A stretch of 13,456 nucleotides of DNA. Origin: a virus. Lineage: Duplodnaviria; Heunggongvirae; Uroviricota; Caudoviricetes. The notes under the pieces are model-generated. The model saw only the letters and a program-made list of their open reading frames with translations. It was not told where the DNA came from and searched no databases. Where the stretch lies: positions 1 to 13,456 of IMG/VR virus record IMGVR_UViG_2548876862_000021; one strand, written 5' to 3'. This document shows, in pieces, positions 2,019 to 10,383 of this stretch. Within the stretch, counting starts at the first letter, position 1, and every line of letters starts with the position of its first letter. Made by a program: the position numbers and the translations under genes.

Positions 2019-3455
2019 TCAGAATCCTCCTTTCTTCTTGGACTGCGGCTCCTCGCGTTCACGGCGGCGCATTTCAGCAGACTGTTGGTCTGTGTCATAA
2101 ATAGCGCCATTTGCCTGAATGCAATACACCGTGCCGGTATTGCCATGACGATTGAGACGAAGGATTAGTTCGGTTTCACCAGGTGGAACACTGTCATCAA
2201 AAGCACCTTCACGATGGATCCCCACCCAATAATCGCAATCCTGTTCAATCTGCCCTGTATCGCGCGAGTCACTTGGTAATGGGCGTTTATTGGTTCGGCT
2301 TTCCAATGCGCGGTTAAGCTGTGTCAGAAGCACAACAACGCAATCAAGCTCTTTGGCAAGGTTCTTCAATCCTTTGGTGATCATGCCGTAAGCAAGGTCG
2401 TTGCGATCGGCCTTCTCAGCAGTCATTAGTGTCAGGTAATCGACCAGAATCATGCCAACGCATCCTTTTTCTCGCTTGATTCGACGGCTTTCGCTGACGA
2501 TTTGAGCCAGAGATAATCCCGGCGTGTCGTCGATGTAAAGCATGTCGATTTCACTCAAGCGATTGGCTGTTTCGATCGCCCTGTTGAAGTCACCATCGTA
2601 ATCACCCTGATAGCCGTCATCGGCGTCATTTGTCGCCGGAAGGTAAAAAATATTCGGGTTAACACCAGACTTCTGCCCTACCAGTTTTTCCAGTATCTGG
2701 TCACCTGGCATTTCAAGGCTGAACATCAGAGCGGGCTTTTTCTCATGCACTGCGCAATTGATTGCCATCTGGCTGTATAGCGTCGTTTTCCCCATCTTAG
2801 GGCGAGCGCCAATGACAAACAGAGAGCCTTTCACCAGACCTTTCGGTGACAGCATCCTGTCCAGCGATGGGATCCCTGTGCTCATTCCTCGTTGTTCGCC
2901 TGACGGGTCAAATCGCTTCTCAAGGTCGCTAACCCAGTCTTCCATGACCTCACCAAATGAACGAAGGCCGCGACGCGATCCGGTTTTTGCATGGTCTGTC
3001 AGTTGCGTGAAAATCGACTGAATAGCTTCGTACTTCTGTGTTGCAGTCATTCCGTTGCGGGAATAGAGCAATTCCGTCGCTTCAGTCATGCGGTTGATGG
3101 CGTAGCGTTCCATTGCGGTTTCACGAACCTGCATTGCATAGGCAATGATGTTTGCTGCGCTTGGCGTGTTCTTTGCGATCTCAGCGATATAAGCAAAACC
3201 GCCAACAGACGCCGTTAACGATTTACGCTCCAGTTCATCGAAAAGCGTCAGGCCATCTACTGGCTTTTGCTCCCGGTGCATTCTGGTTATTTCTTCGAAA
3301 AGGATTTTGTGTGGTCGACTGTAAAATGAGTCAGGCTTCAGCATCGCCAGAACCTTCTGGACGCGCTCACTGCTGTCATCATCCAGAAGCAATCCACCAA
3401 TCACCGCCTGCTCTGCCTCGATGCTATGGGGCGGCGCATAAAAATTATCGGTCAT
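2019..3455 (-). CDS. Replicative DNA helicase, DnaB family (P22 gene 12-like)
   Basis: Strong resemblance to E. coli DnaB throughout (PHSIEAEQAVIGGLLLD, Walker A GARPKMGKTT, LVDYLTLM, LTQLNRALESR). Track starts at GTG 3470; I prefer ATG 3455-3453, preceded by GAGGGTG. Overlaps the O-like stop by 11 nt. Confidence 0.9.
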   Translation of the reverse strand: MTDNFYAPPHSIEAEQAVIGGLLLDDDSSERVQKVLAMLKPDSFYSRPHKILFEEITRMHREQKPVDGLTLFDELERKSLTASVGGFAYIAEIAKNTPSAANIIAYAMQVRETAMERYAINRMTEATELLYSRNGMTATQKYEAIQSIFTQLTDHAKTGSRRGLRSFGEVMEDWVSDLEKRFDPSGEQRGMSTGIPSLDRMLSPKGLVKGSLFVIGARPKMGKTTLYSQMAINCAVHEKKPALMFSLEMPGDQILEKLVGQKSGVNPNIFYLPATNDADDGYQGDYDGDFNRAIETANRLSEIDMLYIDDTPGLSLAQIVSESRRIKREKGCVGMILVDYLTLMTAEKADRNDLAYGMITKGLKNLAKELDCVVVLLTQLNRALESRTNKRPLPSDSRDTGQIEQDCDYWVGIHREGAFDDSVPPGETELILRLNRHGNTGTVYCIQANGAIYDTDQQSAEMRRREREEPQSKKKGGF

Positions 3456-4335
3456 CGTGTTCACCCTCACGAACTTTCAGGTAGGTATTATCGTTAAGCA
3501 GGAAATCAAATCCCTTTTTGTGCCAGACGGTTCCGCGCTGATGGTTTGGGCGCTCTTCGAACATCCATCGGCAATTTTCGCCTACGTAGCTCAAATAATT
3601 TCTCCAGTCCTGCATCGTGAAACCATGCCCGTCAAGCTGGCGGGTTATCACTCCGGCTTTGCGCCAGAACGTTCGGATCTGGTTTTTACGCTTGTCATTC
3701 AGTGCGCGGATTCTTGGCGCTTCAGGAAGGATTTCGTGGTAAGCATCGACAACATCCTGACAGCTAACGGAAGGTTTTTTCTTGTCAGACTTTTTGTCTG
3801 CTGTGGCACTCTCTAATACGTCAGTATTAGAGATATTATTTATATTATTGTTTATGGACAACCGTTGGACAACCGTTGGACAATCTCCGCTGAGAGCCGC
3901 GCCATTACTGGTGTTTGCGTTGGACAACCGTTGGACAACCGTTGGACAATTTTTTGCCTGAAAATCGTCATATTTAACGATTGTAAACAGGCTAAATTTC
4001 TTCCCCATCGAGCAAATATTAAGCATACCTTTCGACTCAAAAGTCCGTAATAAGCTCCGAACTTTGTTGTCGGGGATGAATGTTTCTCTGACCAGCGACG
4101 GGCGTCCAGTTATCATCTGACCGCGATCAACAGTTATCGGACCGATATCCGTATTGACGACAGTAGATTCGTGATTAGCCTTGAGGATTAAGTGAAGCCA
4201 AAGATGTACTGCCTGAGAGTCCTTATAGAGCCTGCTGTCCATAAACTGGCGGTGTATAGAGACATACCCCATACTGGATGCCTCCTGATGTTGTACAGGG
4301 TTATGCCTGTAATCAGCTAACTTAACGACGCCCAT
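3445..4335 (-). CDS. Replication initiator, lambda O-like (iteron-binding)
   Basis: 296-aa ORF immediately upstream of the helicase; contains the ori iterons inside its coding sequence (encoded peptide repeat CPTVVQRLSN), as in lambda O; AGGAG 6 nt upstream of the ATG. Confidence 0.75.
   Translation of the reverse strand: MGVVKLADYRHNPVQHQEASSMGYVSIHRQFMDSRLYKDSQAVHLWLHLILKANHESTVVNTDIGPITVDRGQMITGRPSLVRETFIPDNKVRSLLRTFESKGMLNICSMGKKFSLFTIVKYDDFQAKNCPTVVQRLSNANTSNGAALSGDCPTVVQRLSINNNINNISNTDVLESATADKKSDKKKPSVSCQDVVDAYHEILPEAPRIRALNDKRKNQIRTFWRKAGVITRQLDGHGFTMQDWRNYLSYVGENCRWMFEERPNHQRGTVWHKKGFDFLLNDNTYLKVREGEHDDR
3813..3950. repeat. Replication origin: two clusters of three direct ~11-bp iterons (GTTGGACAACC) plus flanking AT-rich stretch
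   Basis: Seen directly: 3856-3884 GGACAACCGTTGGACAACCGTTGGACAAT and 3919-3950 CGTTGGACAACCGTTGGACAACCGTTGGACAAT; AT-rich 3813-3855 (TATTAGAGATATTATTTATATTATTGTTTAT) lies downstream in the direction of O transcription, the lambda ori arrangement. Confidence 0.7.
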
Positions 4336-4483
4336 GTTTCACTCCTGCTTTGGCTAGTCTGTAAACACCAACAAGGCGCTCTGCGAACGCCCTGTTATTT
4401 GCTGCGGCTACCACTAATCCCTCAGGTGAATCAGGGTGTCGAATCTCTTCTTTTTCCTGGTATTTCTTACGACGTTTTGTCAT
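4322..4483 (-). CDS. Hypothetical small basic protein (53 aa) between cII and O
   Basis: Hand-found ORF MTKRRKKYQEKEEIRHPDSPEGLVVAAANNRAFAERLVGVYRLAKAGVKHGRR, AGGAG 6 nt upstream of ATG 4483-4481; 3' end overlaps the O start by 14 nt. Below track threshold. Confidence 0.35.
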   Translation of the reverse strand: MTKRRKKYQEKEEIRHPDSPEGLVVAAANNRAFAERLVGVYRLAKAGVKHGRR

Positions 4484-4517: not shown

Positions 4518-4796
4518 TCAGGCCTCGAAGAATTCGCCGTTCTTCGGGGCTTTTTCTTTTGTCAGCATTCTGGCTACTTTCTTAGCCAGTTCCGCCAACT
4601 CCTCGTCTTCAACACCCCATTCAAGAACAGCCAGAAGCATTCCCATTTTGGGGATGAAGCTATCTTTCCATCGCGAAATTTGCGATTCATTAATCCCTAA
4701 CGCGTCGGCAACCTTTCGCTGACCACGTACAGCAATTCGATTCAGGATGTTGCTTGTAATTGCATTCGCTTTCTTGCGAGTACTTGTAAGTTGCAT
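4518..4796 (-). CDS. cII: cII-like transcriptional activator
   Basis: Track ORF 4518..4883 contains MQLTSTRKKANAITSNILNRIAVRGQRKVADALGINESQISRWKDSFIPKMGMLLAVLEWGVEDEE..., aligning with lambda CII (QISRWK...MLLAVLEWGV). Start set at ATG 4796-4794 so that nutR lies outside the gene. Confidence 0.8.
   Translation of the reverse strand: MQLTSTRKKANAITSNILNRIAVRGQRKVADALGINESQISRWKDSFIPKMGMLLAVLEWGVEDEELAELAKKVARMLTKEKAPKNGEFFEA
4522..4560 (+). terminator. Intrinsic terminator on the strand antisense to the cII 3' end (oop-like)
   Basis: 11-bp stem (GCCTCGAAGAA / TTCTTCGGGGC, one G-U) with 7-nt loop, directly followed by TTTTTCTTTT. Candidate extended -10 (TGtCATAAT, 4478-4486) about 40 nt upstream. 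Confidence 0.5.
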
Positions 4797-4854
4797 ATGT
4801 AAGTATTTCCTTAACAAATAAGAAGTTATGCGCATCAAATTATGCGCGTTGTAT

Positions 4855-4898
4855 TCCCGCATTTCGGCGGGAATGATGACCATGACTGTTAAAGAGCG
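4855..4898 (-). promoter_or_regulatory. nutR-like site: boxA (CGCTCTTTAACA) followed by boxB hairpin
   Basis: Read on minus strand: boxA at 4898-4887, 14-nt spacer, boxB TCCCGC-CGAAAT-GCGGGA at 4872-4855; the boxB 18-mer is identical to the one upstream of N. Confidence 0.6.
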
Positions 4899-9876: not shown

Positions 9877-10383
9877 ATGGCAAGCAGAGGCGTAAATAAG
9901 GTGATTATCCTTGGTCGGGTAGGACAAGACCCGGAAGTTCGATACTCACCATCAGGAACAGCGTTCGCTAACCTGACAATAGCCACGTCAGAACAATGGC
10001 GAGATAAAAATACTGGCGAGCAAAAGGAATTGACTGAATGGCATCGTGTTGCTGTATCCGGGAAACTGGCTGAGGTCGTGGGGCAGTATGTGAAAAAAGG
10101 TGATCAGATTTATTTCGAGGGAATGCTGAGAACCAGAAAGTGGAAAGACCAGTCAGGACAAGACCGTTACACAACCGAGGTTCATGTCGGAATTAATGGC
10201 GTGATGCAAATGCTTGGCGGCATTGGCGACAGCAAACAACAAGCAGCCAGCAGGCAATCACAGAAGCCACAGCAGCAATCATCACCAGCACAACACAACG
10301 AACCACCTATGGATTTTGACGACGATATACCCTTTGCACCAGTAACTCTCCCCTTCCCTCGTCACGCTATTCACGCAATTTAA
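9877..10383 (+). CDS. ssb: Single-stranded DNA-binding protein (SSB) with a 15-aa extension beyond the canonical DDDIPF tip
   Basis: N-terminus [23 protein letters not shown]..., [14 protein letters not shown] and [11 protein letters not shown] all match E. coli SSB; the ORF continues [15 protein letters not shown] before the stop. Confidence 0.9.

Follow-up and report, generated by a model that had tools for sequence, protein, structure and literature searches.

The window analysed here (the whole stretch of 13,456 nucleotides, from a Caudoviricetes virus in IMG/VR) carries on its minus strand an O-like initiator gene followed by a helicase gene, with an array of short direct repeats, an AT-rich tract and a palindrome lying inside the initiator coding sequence. 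The features discussed below are these:

2019 to 3470, minus strand: phage DnaB-family replicative helicase gene, matching Pfam DnaB and DnaB_C and scoring 582 bits against TIGR03600 phage_DnaB (cut-off 498.65)
3445 to 4335, minus strand: O-like replication initiator gene, an ORF of 296 aa matching PHROG 345, 'replication initiation O-like' (E 5.8e-85)
3919 to 3951, minus strand: iteron triplet 1, proximal to the part coding for the N-domain; three 11-bp units with TGTCCAAC cores, encoding CPTVVQRLSN (residues 130-139)
3886 to 3918, minus strand: inter-triplet spacer of 33 bp, fixed in length and variable in sequence
3853 to 3885, minus strand: iteron triplet 2, adjoining the AT-rich tract; two full TGTCCAAC cores and a last unit with TGTCCA alone, encoding CPTVVQRLSI (residues 152-161)
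3834 to 3852, no strand assigned: AT-rich tract, GC 0.12-0.22, encoding the Asn/Ile-rich NNINNI within INNNINNIS
3810 to 3833, no strand assigned: perfect palindrome (arms of 10 bp, loop of 4 nt), reading TCTCTAATAC gtca GTATTAGAGA on the plus strand and bordering the AT-rich tract on its distal side

The repeats are built on an 8-bp core that reads TGTCCAAC on the gene (minus) strand. Its reverse complement, GTTGGACA, occurs on the plus strand at 3864-3871, 3875-3882, 3919-3926, 3930-3937 and 3941-3948, and a sixth, partial copy, TATGGACA, lies on the plus strand at 3853-3860. The six 11-bp units form two triplets with a pitch of exactly 11 bp and an offset between triplets of 66 bp (6 x 11); at this offset, the 30-nt blocks at 3855-3884 and 3921-3950 are 100% identical. 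Both arrays were called by Tandem Repeats Finder (period 11, 100% matches), and an exact 30-nt duplicate would be expected by chance about 1e-10 times in 13.5 kb (~9e7 position pairs x 4^-30). Across the whole window a loose 9-mer was only weakly enriched (7 matches vs 3.5 expected), so the repeat signal resides in the clustering and the lattice. The spacer carries CCAGTAATGGCGCGG on the gene strand at 3897-3911, a motif common to a lineage with 12-bp units. Folding the iteron region as single-stranded DNA gave no significant structure (z -1.5), and the window has no match in Rfam.

These coordinates and repeat calls agree with the original prediction of six copies of about 11 bp in two clusters of three, set inside the initiator coding sequence and followed by an AT-rich stretch; the gene is now placed on the minus strand at 3445-4335, and the AT-rich stretch is the one at 3834-3852, downstream in the direction of the gene. 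The gap between the triplets, given there as 34 bp, is in fact 33 bp (3 x 11). The peptide CPTVVQRLS is indeed present twice in the 296-aa ORF (residues 130-138 and 152-160), although as a duplication with a 22-residue period and not as the strictly tandem repeat of CPTVVQRLSN first described.

The initiator gene is 99.2% identical to gene 43 of Shigella phage Sf6. Its product can be divided into an N-terminal putative origin-binding domain (residues ~20-128/129), an origin-carrying linker (~129-188) and a C-terminal domain (~190-290), with the repeats encoding residues 130-161 of the 296, between a G38P-like N-domain and a confidently modelled C-domain (190-290). The protein falls below threshold for every Pfam and NCBIfam model, Phage_rep_O included; with E values up to 10 allowed, the sub-threshold hits, seen in sister lineages alone, were to Phage_rep_org_N and HTH/wHTH families only. 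An AF2 model built from a 12-sequence alignment was usable and confident for the C-domain and had pLDDT <50 for residues 1-188. A Foldseek search of the PDB with this model returned nothing below E 0.68 and was discounted as meaningless, and sequence searches of the PDB with the single protein and with a profile found nothing relevant. In a comparison with G38P, the initiator of Bacillus phage SPP1, hhalign matched residues 20-129 to G38P residues 2-114 (probability 97.9%, E 4.8e-13), and tblastn with the initiator against G38P gave E 1e-5. Sequence similarity of this order indicates that the initiator N-domain is homologous to that of G38P. Because the AF2 model is unreliable in this region, the suggestion that the N-domain adopts a winged-helix fold comes from the weak HTH hits together with the G38P homology.

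The helicase ORF lies immediately downstream, directly overlapping the initiator gene at its 3' end, with no gene for a G39P-like loader between them. The order of initiator and helicase genes is identical in Sf6, HK620, L and HK022, and the P22 gene 18/gene 12-type module likewise has a DnaB-family helicase immediately 3' of the initiator. The helicase is the presumed partner of the initiator C-terminal domain. In SPP1, by contrast, a separate helicase loader, G39P, is encoded between initiator and helicase, while lambda P captures host DnaB and the window encodes its own DnaB-family helicase.

Comparison of 178 distinct relatives (linker sequences) shows how the repeat lattice has been maintained. 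The best self-match lag was 66 bp in 167/178 distinct linkers, the remainder falling on the same 11-bp lattice or being one-block variants, and the block offset was 66 bp in all 176 relatives with at least two blocks. The spacers were represented by 113 distinct sequences, compared with 47 for the blocks. Among 67 distinct TGTCCAAC-lineage sequences, third-codon-position heterozygosity was 0.281 in the N-domain (93/100 sites variable) and 0.006 in the iteron cores (2/15 variable); in the same 67 sequences all 15 sites of the 3-nt inter-core spacers varied, amino-acid-changing sites included. Selection on the repeats acts at the DNA level, not at the peptide level. These results leave little room for a protein-level explanation, in which a peptide of a flexible linker was duplicated by slippage and the DNA itself has no function. 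The protein does hold CPTVVQRLS twice, in a region modelled at low confidence and linker-like. However, the 11-bp unit is translated in each of the three frames, so an 11-bp period could not be selected through the peptide. The peptide also varies (V/D/N/G, R/Q/L/P, L/M/A) where the core bases at synonymous sites do not, and other lineages encode unrelated peptides (VPADYQQITT, VPTECQQSA, CPADVQPVS) on the same DNA lattice. This explanation is scarcely credible, having been effectively refuted by the analysis of core-site conservation.

The two blocks of a given genome were identical in 59% of sequences, with a median identity of 1.00 as against 0.57 between lineages, and so show concerted evolution. 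Block number varies between 1, 2 and 3, and many prophages have one block alone; either three units are sufficient in these prophages or the prophages are defective. The variants with one or three blocks are a modestly new observation. Concerted evolution and copy number changes in steps of the whole 66-bp unit (1, 2 or 3 blocks) are what would be expected if the binding unit were the whole ~30-bp block, giving two large sites that each hold an initiator oligomer, still within an origin but with a different stoichiometry. The HK620 record, which annotates two joined segments, not six repeats, and the retention of TGTCCA alone in the last unit of each block point in the same direction. Inside the block, however, conservation has a strict 11-bp period of eight invariant and three free bases, as from three equivalent contacts, and unequal recombination between identical 30-bp blocks would produce 66-bp steps in any case. 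We therefore favor the 11-bp unit as the binding site and consider a whole-block unit unlikely.

The relatives fall into four core lineages: TGTCCAAC, TGTCCAGC, TGCCAAC and TACCAGC. In a MAFFT-based table of N-domain identity by core lineage, identity was never >0.66 between core lineages and was at least 0.53 within them. The C-terminal domain behaved differently, with 102 pairs of sequences having different cores and C-termini >95% identical, and 411 pairs having the same core and C-termini <40% identical. From these alignments, core type tracks the N-terminal domain and is uncoupled from the C-terminal domain. The association of iterons with the N-domain could in part be plain physical linkage, since the iterons start just ~27 nt past the part coding for the N-domain.

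Behind the iterons, the AT-rich tract and then the palindrome followed in all relatives compared. The tract is conserved beside the iterons of every lineage. Despite lying within a gene, it equals the minimum GC content of any 33-mer in the 13.4-kb window, and it is presumed to be a DNA-unwinding element. Each of the 178 distinct relatives had the palindrome, in 11 stem variants overall; both sides had changed at nine of the ten stem pairs, and one-sided changes numbered 0. Its maintenance through compensatory changes is a modestly new observation. When folded as single-stranded DNA, either strand of the palindrome gave z scores of about -4.4 to -5. The palindrome at 3810-3833 falls within the interval given in the original prediction, yet was not mentioned there.

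Two other roles for this part of the locus were considered. The palindrome together with the T-rich tract was flagged as terminator-like on the plus strand, antisense to the gene. Because the stem is AT-rich and no plus-strand promoter-like site was found in 3400-3810, the stretch scanned and the side from which a transcript ending at the hairpin would come, an antisense-terminator reading was set aside as less probable. The AT-rich tract and palindrome could instead be mainly a recombination joint, a boundary where the N-terminal half of a lambdoid initiator meets the C-terminal half, kept for that purpose rather than for unwinding. The stem type of the palindrome tracks the C-terminal module while the iterons track the N-domain, so that crossovers fall in the common AT-rich tract, and chimeras such as Eho59 exist. 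A joint would nevertheless require neither a perfect palindrome with compensatory changes nor the lowest GC content of the window, and recombination here is compatible with an unwinding role, making it a consequence rather than an alternative. As the main reason for keeping these elements, recombination is highly improbable.

The same arrangement is found in several described phages. In the GenBank record of Sf6 (AF547987), a putative rep_origin at locus 2911-3006 maps exactly to window 3855-3950, with two point differences from the window inside the Sf6 units. In HK620 (AF335538), gene O is annotated with a rep_origin in two parts at the corresponding position, and it has the same lattice and a near-identical C-terminal half; the units of HK620 and HK022 have another core (TACCAGCA) and another N-domain, ~49% identical. 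For Salmonella phage L, a 'putative origin of replication' is annotated in gene 18 (MW013503); the TGTCCAACGG core, the number of units (six) and the layout are those of the window, and the 11-bp repeats described for phage L agree with the window's six 11-bp repeats with TGTCCAACGG in two groups (PMC8022706). In that study, L gp18 was 25% identical to P22 gp18, and P22 had four ~20-bp repeats (PMC8022706). The published grading of the Sf6, HK620 and L origins is 'putative' or 'likely'. A search of the searchable literature, to which the original HK620 and Sf6 papers do not belong, found the descriptive statement for phage L and no footprint, ori-plasmid or initiation-mapping experiments on the origins of HK022, HK620, Sf6 or L. 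A putative origin of this type is already known, and because the same repeats are annotated as a putative origin in Sf6, HK620 and L, the present finding is an ordinary one of small direct value. The observation is not as fresh as the original prediction implied, the same reading being found in the Sf6 and HK620 GenBank records and in the phage L paper (PMC8022706).

More distant systems share the architecture. Like the window, ori-lambda lies inside the initiator gene between the parts coding for the N- and C-domains, and in both, transcription passes first through direct repeats, then through an AT-rich tract and finally through a palindrome whose loop is 4 nt (GTCAGAGAATTC tggc GAATCCTCTGAC in lambda, with 12-bp arms as compared to the 10-bp arms of the window). 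Specificity is modular in lambda as well, the N-domain going with the iterons and the C-domain with the helicase system. The iterons themselves differ: lambda has four, annotated as 18 bp, at spacings of 20-24 bp, as against two in-phase triplets of 11-bp units, six in all, in the window. The original prediction that the window's iterons are short and unlike those of lambda holds, with six 11-bp units compared to four of about 18 bp. The proteins also differ in their profile matches: lambda O matches Pfam PF04492 Phage_rep_O with 123 bits whereas the window N-domain has no match at E <= 10. Residues 16-169 of lambda O match the PHROG 345 profile (E 5e-17), and an alignment of window-type sequences (A3) compared with lambda O by hhalign gave a probability of 0.3%. 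A mixed alignment (A1) scored 97.8% against lambda O, but A1 includes the lambda-type C-terminus of Eho59, which accounts for the match, and the value was rejected as evidence on the window protein for that reason.

In SPP1, as in the window, the origin is part of the initiator gene and follows directly on the N-domain. G38P binds the direct repeats of oriL, which is inside gene 38 beside an AT-rich unwinding element (PMC6316719), and both G38P binding and oriL-dependent replication were shown experimentally (cited in PMC6316719). The two systems differ in the sequences and spacings of their repeats and in the C-terminal domain, which in SPP1 is of another type (Phg_2220_C), and the SPP1 host is Gram-positive. 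Iteron number also varies among lambdoid origins elsewhere. The Shiga-toxin phages 933W and P27 have six-iteron origins in which extra iterons add residues to O and copy number is functionally important (PMC7466680); these iterons are lambda-type, ~19 bp, bound by a lambda-type O and unrelated in sequence to the window units.

Taken with this comparative evidence, window 3810-3951 is very probably the replication origin of an HK620/Sf6/L-type lambdoid module, set in the inter-domain linker of its own initiator gene. The parts of the original origin-iteron reading that can be tested by sequence have stood up, the evidence being the linker position, the helicase as the next gene, selection at the DNA level, covariation with the N-domain and the layout shared with ori-lambda. 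We infer that the O-like N-terminal domain would recognise the six 11-bp iterons (8-bp core TGTCCAAC), arranged as two triplets 66 bp apart with a pitch of one helical turn. The resulting nucleoprotein complex would then destabilise the neighboring 19-bp AT-rich tract, and the C-terminal domain would recruit the phage DnaB-type helicase, the product of the next gene. The palindrome may mark the far edge of the unwound region, and the duplicated peptide CPTVVQRLS is probably a by-product of DNA sites set into a tolerant protein linker.

Bound repeats might alternatively act as operators for expression of the O and helicase genes, occupied by the initiator or by another phage or host protein, with replication starting elsewhere. 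A direct origin assay for the module is absent from the searched literature, and the repeats contain weak sigma-70-like matches (TGGACA-18-GACAAT), although promoter-like matches in the repeats are an artefact of repetition and are not enriched over shuffled sequence (4 vs 2.8 +/- 1.4). Against such a function, the sites adjoin the window's most AT-rich tract and a palindrome in the order seen at ori-lambda, and the homologous SPP1 protein binds repeats within its own gene, which function as an origin in a reconstituted system. Phages that share hosts differ in their cores, and the cores track the phage N-domain, which makes a host factor unlikely. DnaA boxes, of which the window has two, a count no higher than chance expectation, are absent near the origin. 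We regard an operator function with replication starting elsewhere as very unlikely, and return to the origin reading.

The palindrome may be more than a passive neighbor, as a structured-DNA element that lambdoid origins cannot do without, and six cores at an 11-bp pitch may allow the initiator to lock an underwound helix (11 bp/turn) and so drive melting. The idea of a structured-DNA palindrome draws on its maintenance by compensatory double changes, seen throughout the relatives examined, and on the parallel element in lambda. As a hairpin or cruciform, the palindrome might bound unwinding or give the DnaB-type helicase a junction for loading or priming. Neither the structural palindrome nor the underwound helix appears in the annotation and papers found for this type of origin, and we offer the combined proposal tentatively, as a possibility that we would not yet favor.

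In summary, the replication module of the window is confirmed to be common, having been matched in 377/5426 complete E. coli genomes; for 144 of these the match covered at least 80% of the gene. The annotation of the initiator can be improved, since RefSeq labels it 'hypothetical protein' and both Pfam and NCBIfam lack a model for it. Four natural cores, with two or three positions differing among them, each go with one of four N-domain lineages, so that a recognition code for this initiator family could be worked out, and the natural one-, two- and three-block variants would provide a test of how many sites are needed per origin. The conserved palindrome poses a question that is common to the window-type origin and ori-lambda.

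The minus strand here carries the early-right operon of a lambdoid phage, which includes the following features:

3445-4335, minus strand: 296-aa ORF of the O-like initiator (PHROG 345 'replication initiation O-like', E 5.8e-85)
Overlapping the 3' end of the initiator gene: phage DnaB-family helicase gene (TIGR03600, 582 bits; Pfam DnaB and DnaB_C)
3810-3833: perfect palindrome with 10-bp arms, inside the initiator gene, bordering the AT-rich tract on the side away from the repeats
3834-3852: AT-rich tract, after the repeats in the gene's direction
4518-4883, minus strand: cII-like gene

There is no helicase-loader gene between the initiator and helicase genes. Upstream of the initiator are a 53-aa orf48-like ORF, the cII-like gene and, in divergent orientation, a gene for a cI-like repressor. 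The 53-aa ORF (4322-4483, minus strand; PHROG 1331, unknown function, E 1.4e-37) overlaps the initiator start and is the counterpart of P22 orf48 and HK022 gp53, conserved between cII and O in this module and absent from lambda. A strong terminator-like hairpin with a T-run (4520-4552, plus strand) faces the 3' end of the cII-like gene in antisense orientation, where lambda has the terminator of its oop RNA; Rfam gave no match anywhere in the window. An imperfect tandem repeat is found in the early-left region (10244-10292; 21-bp period, 2.3 copies, 74% matches). Overall the window is mosaic, the best coverage by any phage record being at most 65%.

The original prediction of six copies of about 11 bp in two clusters of three, inside the initiator coding sequence and followed by an AT-rich stretch, was borne out. 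The repeat finder returned six copies with successive spacings of 11, 11, 44, 11 and 11; GTTGGACA (plus strand; the reverse complement of TGTCCAAC) starts at 3864, 3875, 3919, 3930 and 3941, with a partial core copy, TATGGACA, at 3853 on the same strand. Both arrays have period 11 with 100% matches (Tandem Repeats Finder), and the AT-rich tract ties for lowest GC among the 33-mers of the window. The distance between clusters, predicted as 34 bp, is 33 bp, with a block offset of 66, so all six units share one 11-bp lattice. The two 30-nt blocks (3855-3884 and 3921-3950) are 100% identical, for which the chance expectation in a 13.5-kb window is about 1e-10 by an arithmetic estimate; a loose 9-mer count alone gave weak enrichment (7 versus 3.5 expected).

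The predicted doubled peptide is present as CPTVVQRLS at residues 130-138 and 152-160, and the array might thus be read as a repeat of the protein alone. Since 11 is not divisible by three, however, all three reading frames are used across successive units (TGT CCA ACG GTT GTC CAA CGG TTG TCC A). Heterozygosity at third codon positions, taken over 67 distinct members of the TGTCCAAC lineage, was 0.281 in the N-domain (93/100 sites variable) and 0.006 in the iteron cores (2/15 variable), while the 3-nt spacers between cores varied at each of their 15 positions, amino-acid-changing ones included, so that the encoded peptide drifts (V/D/N/G, R/Q/L/P, L/M/A). In other core lineages the lattice is kept but the peptides it encodes are unrelated. 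The near-invariant core third positions beside freely varying spacers contradict a pure peptide repeat, which is extremely unlikely; judged by these substitution patterns, the repeat is a DNA element.

Relatives collected from annotated phages and IMG/VR (268 loci, 178 distinct linker sequences) keep this lattice. The best self-match lag was 66 bp in 167 of the 178 linkers, the others having lags of 55, 77, 44 or 22 on the same lattice or being one-block variants, and every one of the 176 sequences that have two or more blocks showed a block offset of 66. Within a genome, the two blocks matched exactly in 59% of sequences (median identity 1.00; 0.57 between lineages), and the 33-bp spacer is free to vary (113 distinct spacers versus 47 distinct blocks). 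A variant of the origin reading, in which whole blocks rather than six independent units are the binding sites, is possible though rather unlikely. In all 178 linkers the AT-rich tract and then the palindrome come next. The pattern xxxCCAxC is common to four core lineages:

TGTCCAAC: window, Sf6, L
TGTCCAGC: CobraSix type
TGCCAAC: Klebsiella and Erwinia types
TACCAGC: HK022, HK620

Prophages differ in how many copies they have of the 66-bp unit, a triplet with its spacer (loci L060, with three blocks, and L062 and L130, with one each; initiator proteins P0001, P0036 and P0097). Initiators with three blocks have 318 aa and form at least 22 clusters; those with two have 296-299 aa, and those with one 274 or 277 aa (two clusters, on 33 and 26 contigs). 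[quoted passage not shown] The inter-triplet spacer carries a motif, CCAGTAATGGCGCGG (gene strand, 3897-3911), common to another lambdoid initiator lineage (loci L277, L288 and L271), whose units, CCGCACAT or CCGATGAAC, form two clusters at 12-bp pitch and whose C-domain is of lambda type. Common descent may account for the motif, or it may be one more conserved site.

The palindrome, which was not part of the original prediction, is present in 178/178 relatives, always with perfect pairing over 9-10 bp and a loop of 4 nt (T[G/A]A[C/A]); the stem comes in 11 variants. Among its 18 distinct types, two-sided changes occurred in 9 of 10 pairs and one-sided (G-T) changes in none; 96% of cells were paired, versus 30-49% with the partner slid, and the covariation score was reached by 0 of 500 shuffles. 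The encoded peptide varies (SNTDVLES, SLGKPNES, SLSKDKES, LLPNGSKY). Its pairing is strictly Watson-Crick, which favours a role at the DNA level over an RNA hairpin. On the plus strand it was also flagged as terminator-like, a reading that is possible. In lambda the AT-rich tract is immediately followed by a counterpart, GTCAGAGAATTC tggc GAATCCTCTGAC.

The proposal of a different initiator-ori specificity gained support, as core lineages track N-domains and are uncoupled from C-termini. Between core lineages the N-domains were no more than 0.66 identical, and within a lineage no less than 0.53 (proper alignment). For the C-terminal 105 residues there is no such coupling to the cores: 102 pairs have different cores and C-termini more than 95% identical (e.g. 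Sf6/HK022), and 411 pairs have the same core and C-termini less than 40% identical. No mismatched N-domain/iteron recombinant was seen among the 178 sequences, an association to which physical linkage contributes. The palindrome stem type goes with the C-terminal module, which places crossovers in the shared AT-rich tract and keeps the N-domain and its sites together. Erwinia phage Eho59 (vB_EhrS_59, MH443101; locus L008, 838-1788), a natural chimera, has the N-domain and TGCCAAC iterons of this initiator family, a lambda-O-type C-domain, and then a lambda-P-type gene, showing an exchange point at the origin. That the AT-rich tract and palindrome are mainly a recombination joint is highly improbable.

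Residues 20-129 of the N-domain are homologous to the N-domain of G38P, the replisome organizer of Bacillus phage SPP1 (hhalign probability 97.9%, E 4.8e-13; also tblastn). The oriL site, located within gene 38 beside an AT-rich unwinding element, has direct repeats that G38P binds, and oriL-dependent replication has been reconstituted in vitro (PMC6316719). In gene 38, as in the window initiator gene, the repeats directly follow the part coding for the N-domain. Weak HTH/wHTH matches fell at residues 77-126, in sister lineages, and the predicted initiator structure is confident for the C-domain only, a fold search with it being uninformative. Whereas lambda O matches Phage_rep_O, the window initiator matches no Pfam or NCBIfam model, and window-type sequences have no profile similarity to lambda O. 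A match between lambda O and a mixed alignment including Eho59 was rejected as evidence on the window protein, being carried by the lambda-type C-terminus of Eho59. Residues 16-169 of lambda O match the PHROG 345 profile (E 5e-17), making a remote common origin of the two DNA-binding domains plausible.

Anatomy, core selection, covariation, N-domain homology to an origin binder known from experiments, and helicase identity are all directly observed here, and the iteron region is probably an origin bound by the initiator N-domain. On the model of lambda and SPP1, the N-domain would bind the six cores, the complex would melt the AT-rich tract, and the C-domain would recruit the phage DnaB-type helicase. 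The 11-bp pitch places the three sites of a triplet on the same helix face; that all six are in phase at 11 bp per turn, as in underwound DNA, is speculation. Regulatory operators, with the origin elsewhere, are a quite improbable alternative.

The initiator gene is 99.2-99.4% identical to those of Sf6, HK106, mEp234, IME10 and others. After coordinate conversion, the Sf6 rep_origin feature ('putative; repeat region reminiscent of the phage lambda origin; similar to phage HK620') corresponds exactly to 3855-3950; the HK620 record has a two-segment rep_origin in the equivalent place, and that of phage L a 'putative origin of replication'. The predicted contrast of six 11-bp units with the lambda iterons also holds, the 11-bp repeats of phage L having been set against those of lambda and P22, which number four and measure about 20 bp (PMC8022706). 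Both the observation, confirmed here, and the origin interpretation, supported here, were therefore already public as predictions; our literature search found no experiments on an HK620/Sf6/L-type origin. Of 5426 complete E. coli genomes, 377 have matches to the initiator module, with at least 80% of the gene covered in 144, and the best eight RefSeq matches listed (H103-H110) are labelled 'hypothetical protein'. A common initiator thus named, with no Pfam or NCBIfam model, represents an annotation gap. What remains new is the compensatory palindrome, the strict lattice, and a natural specificity series.
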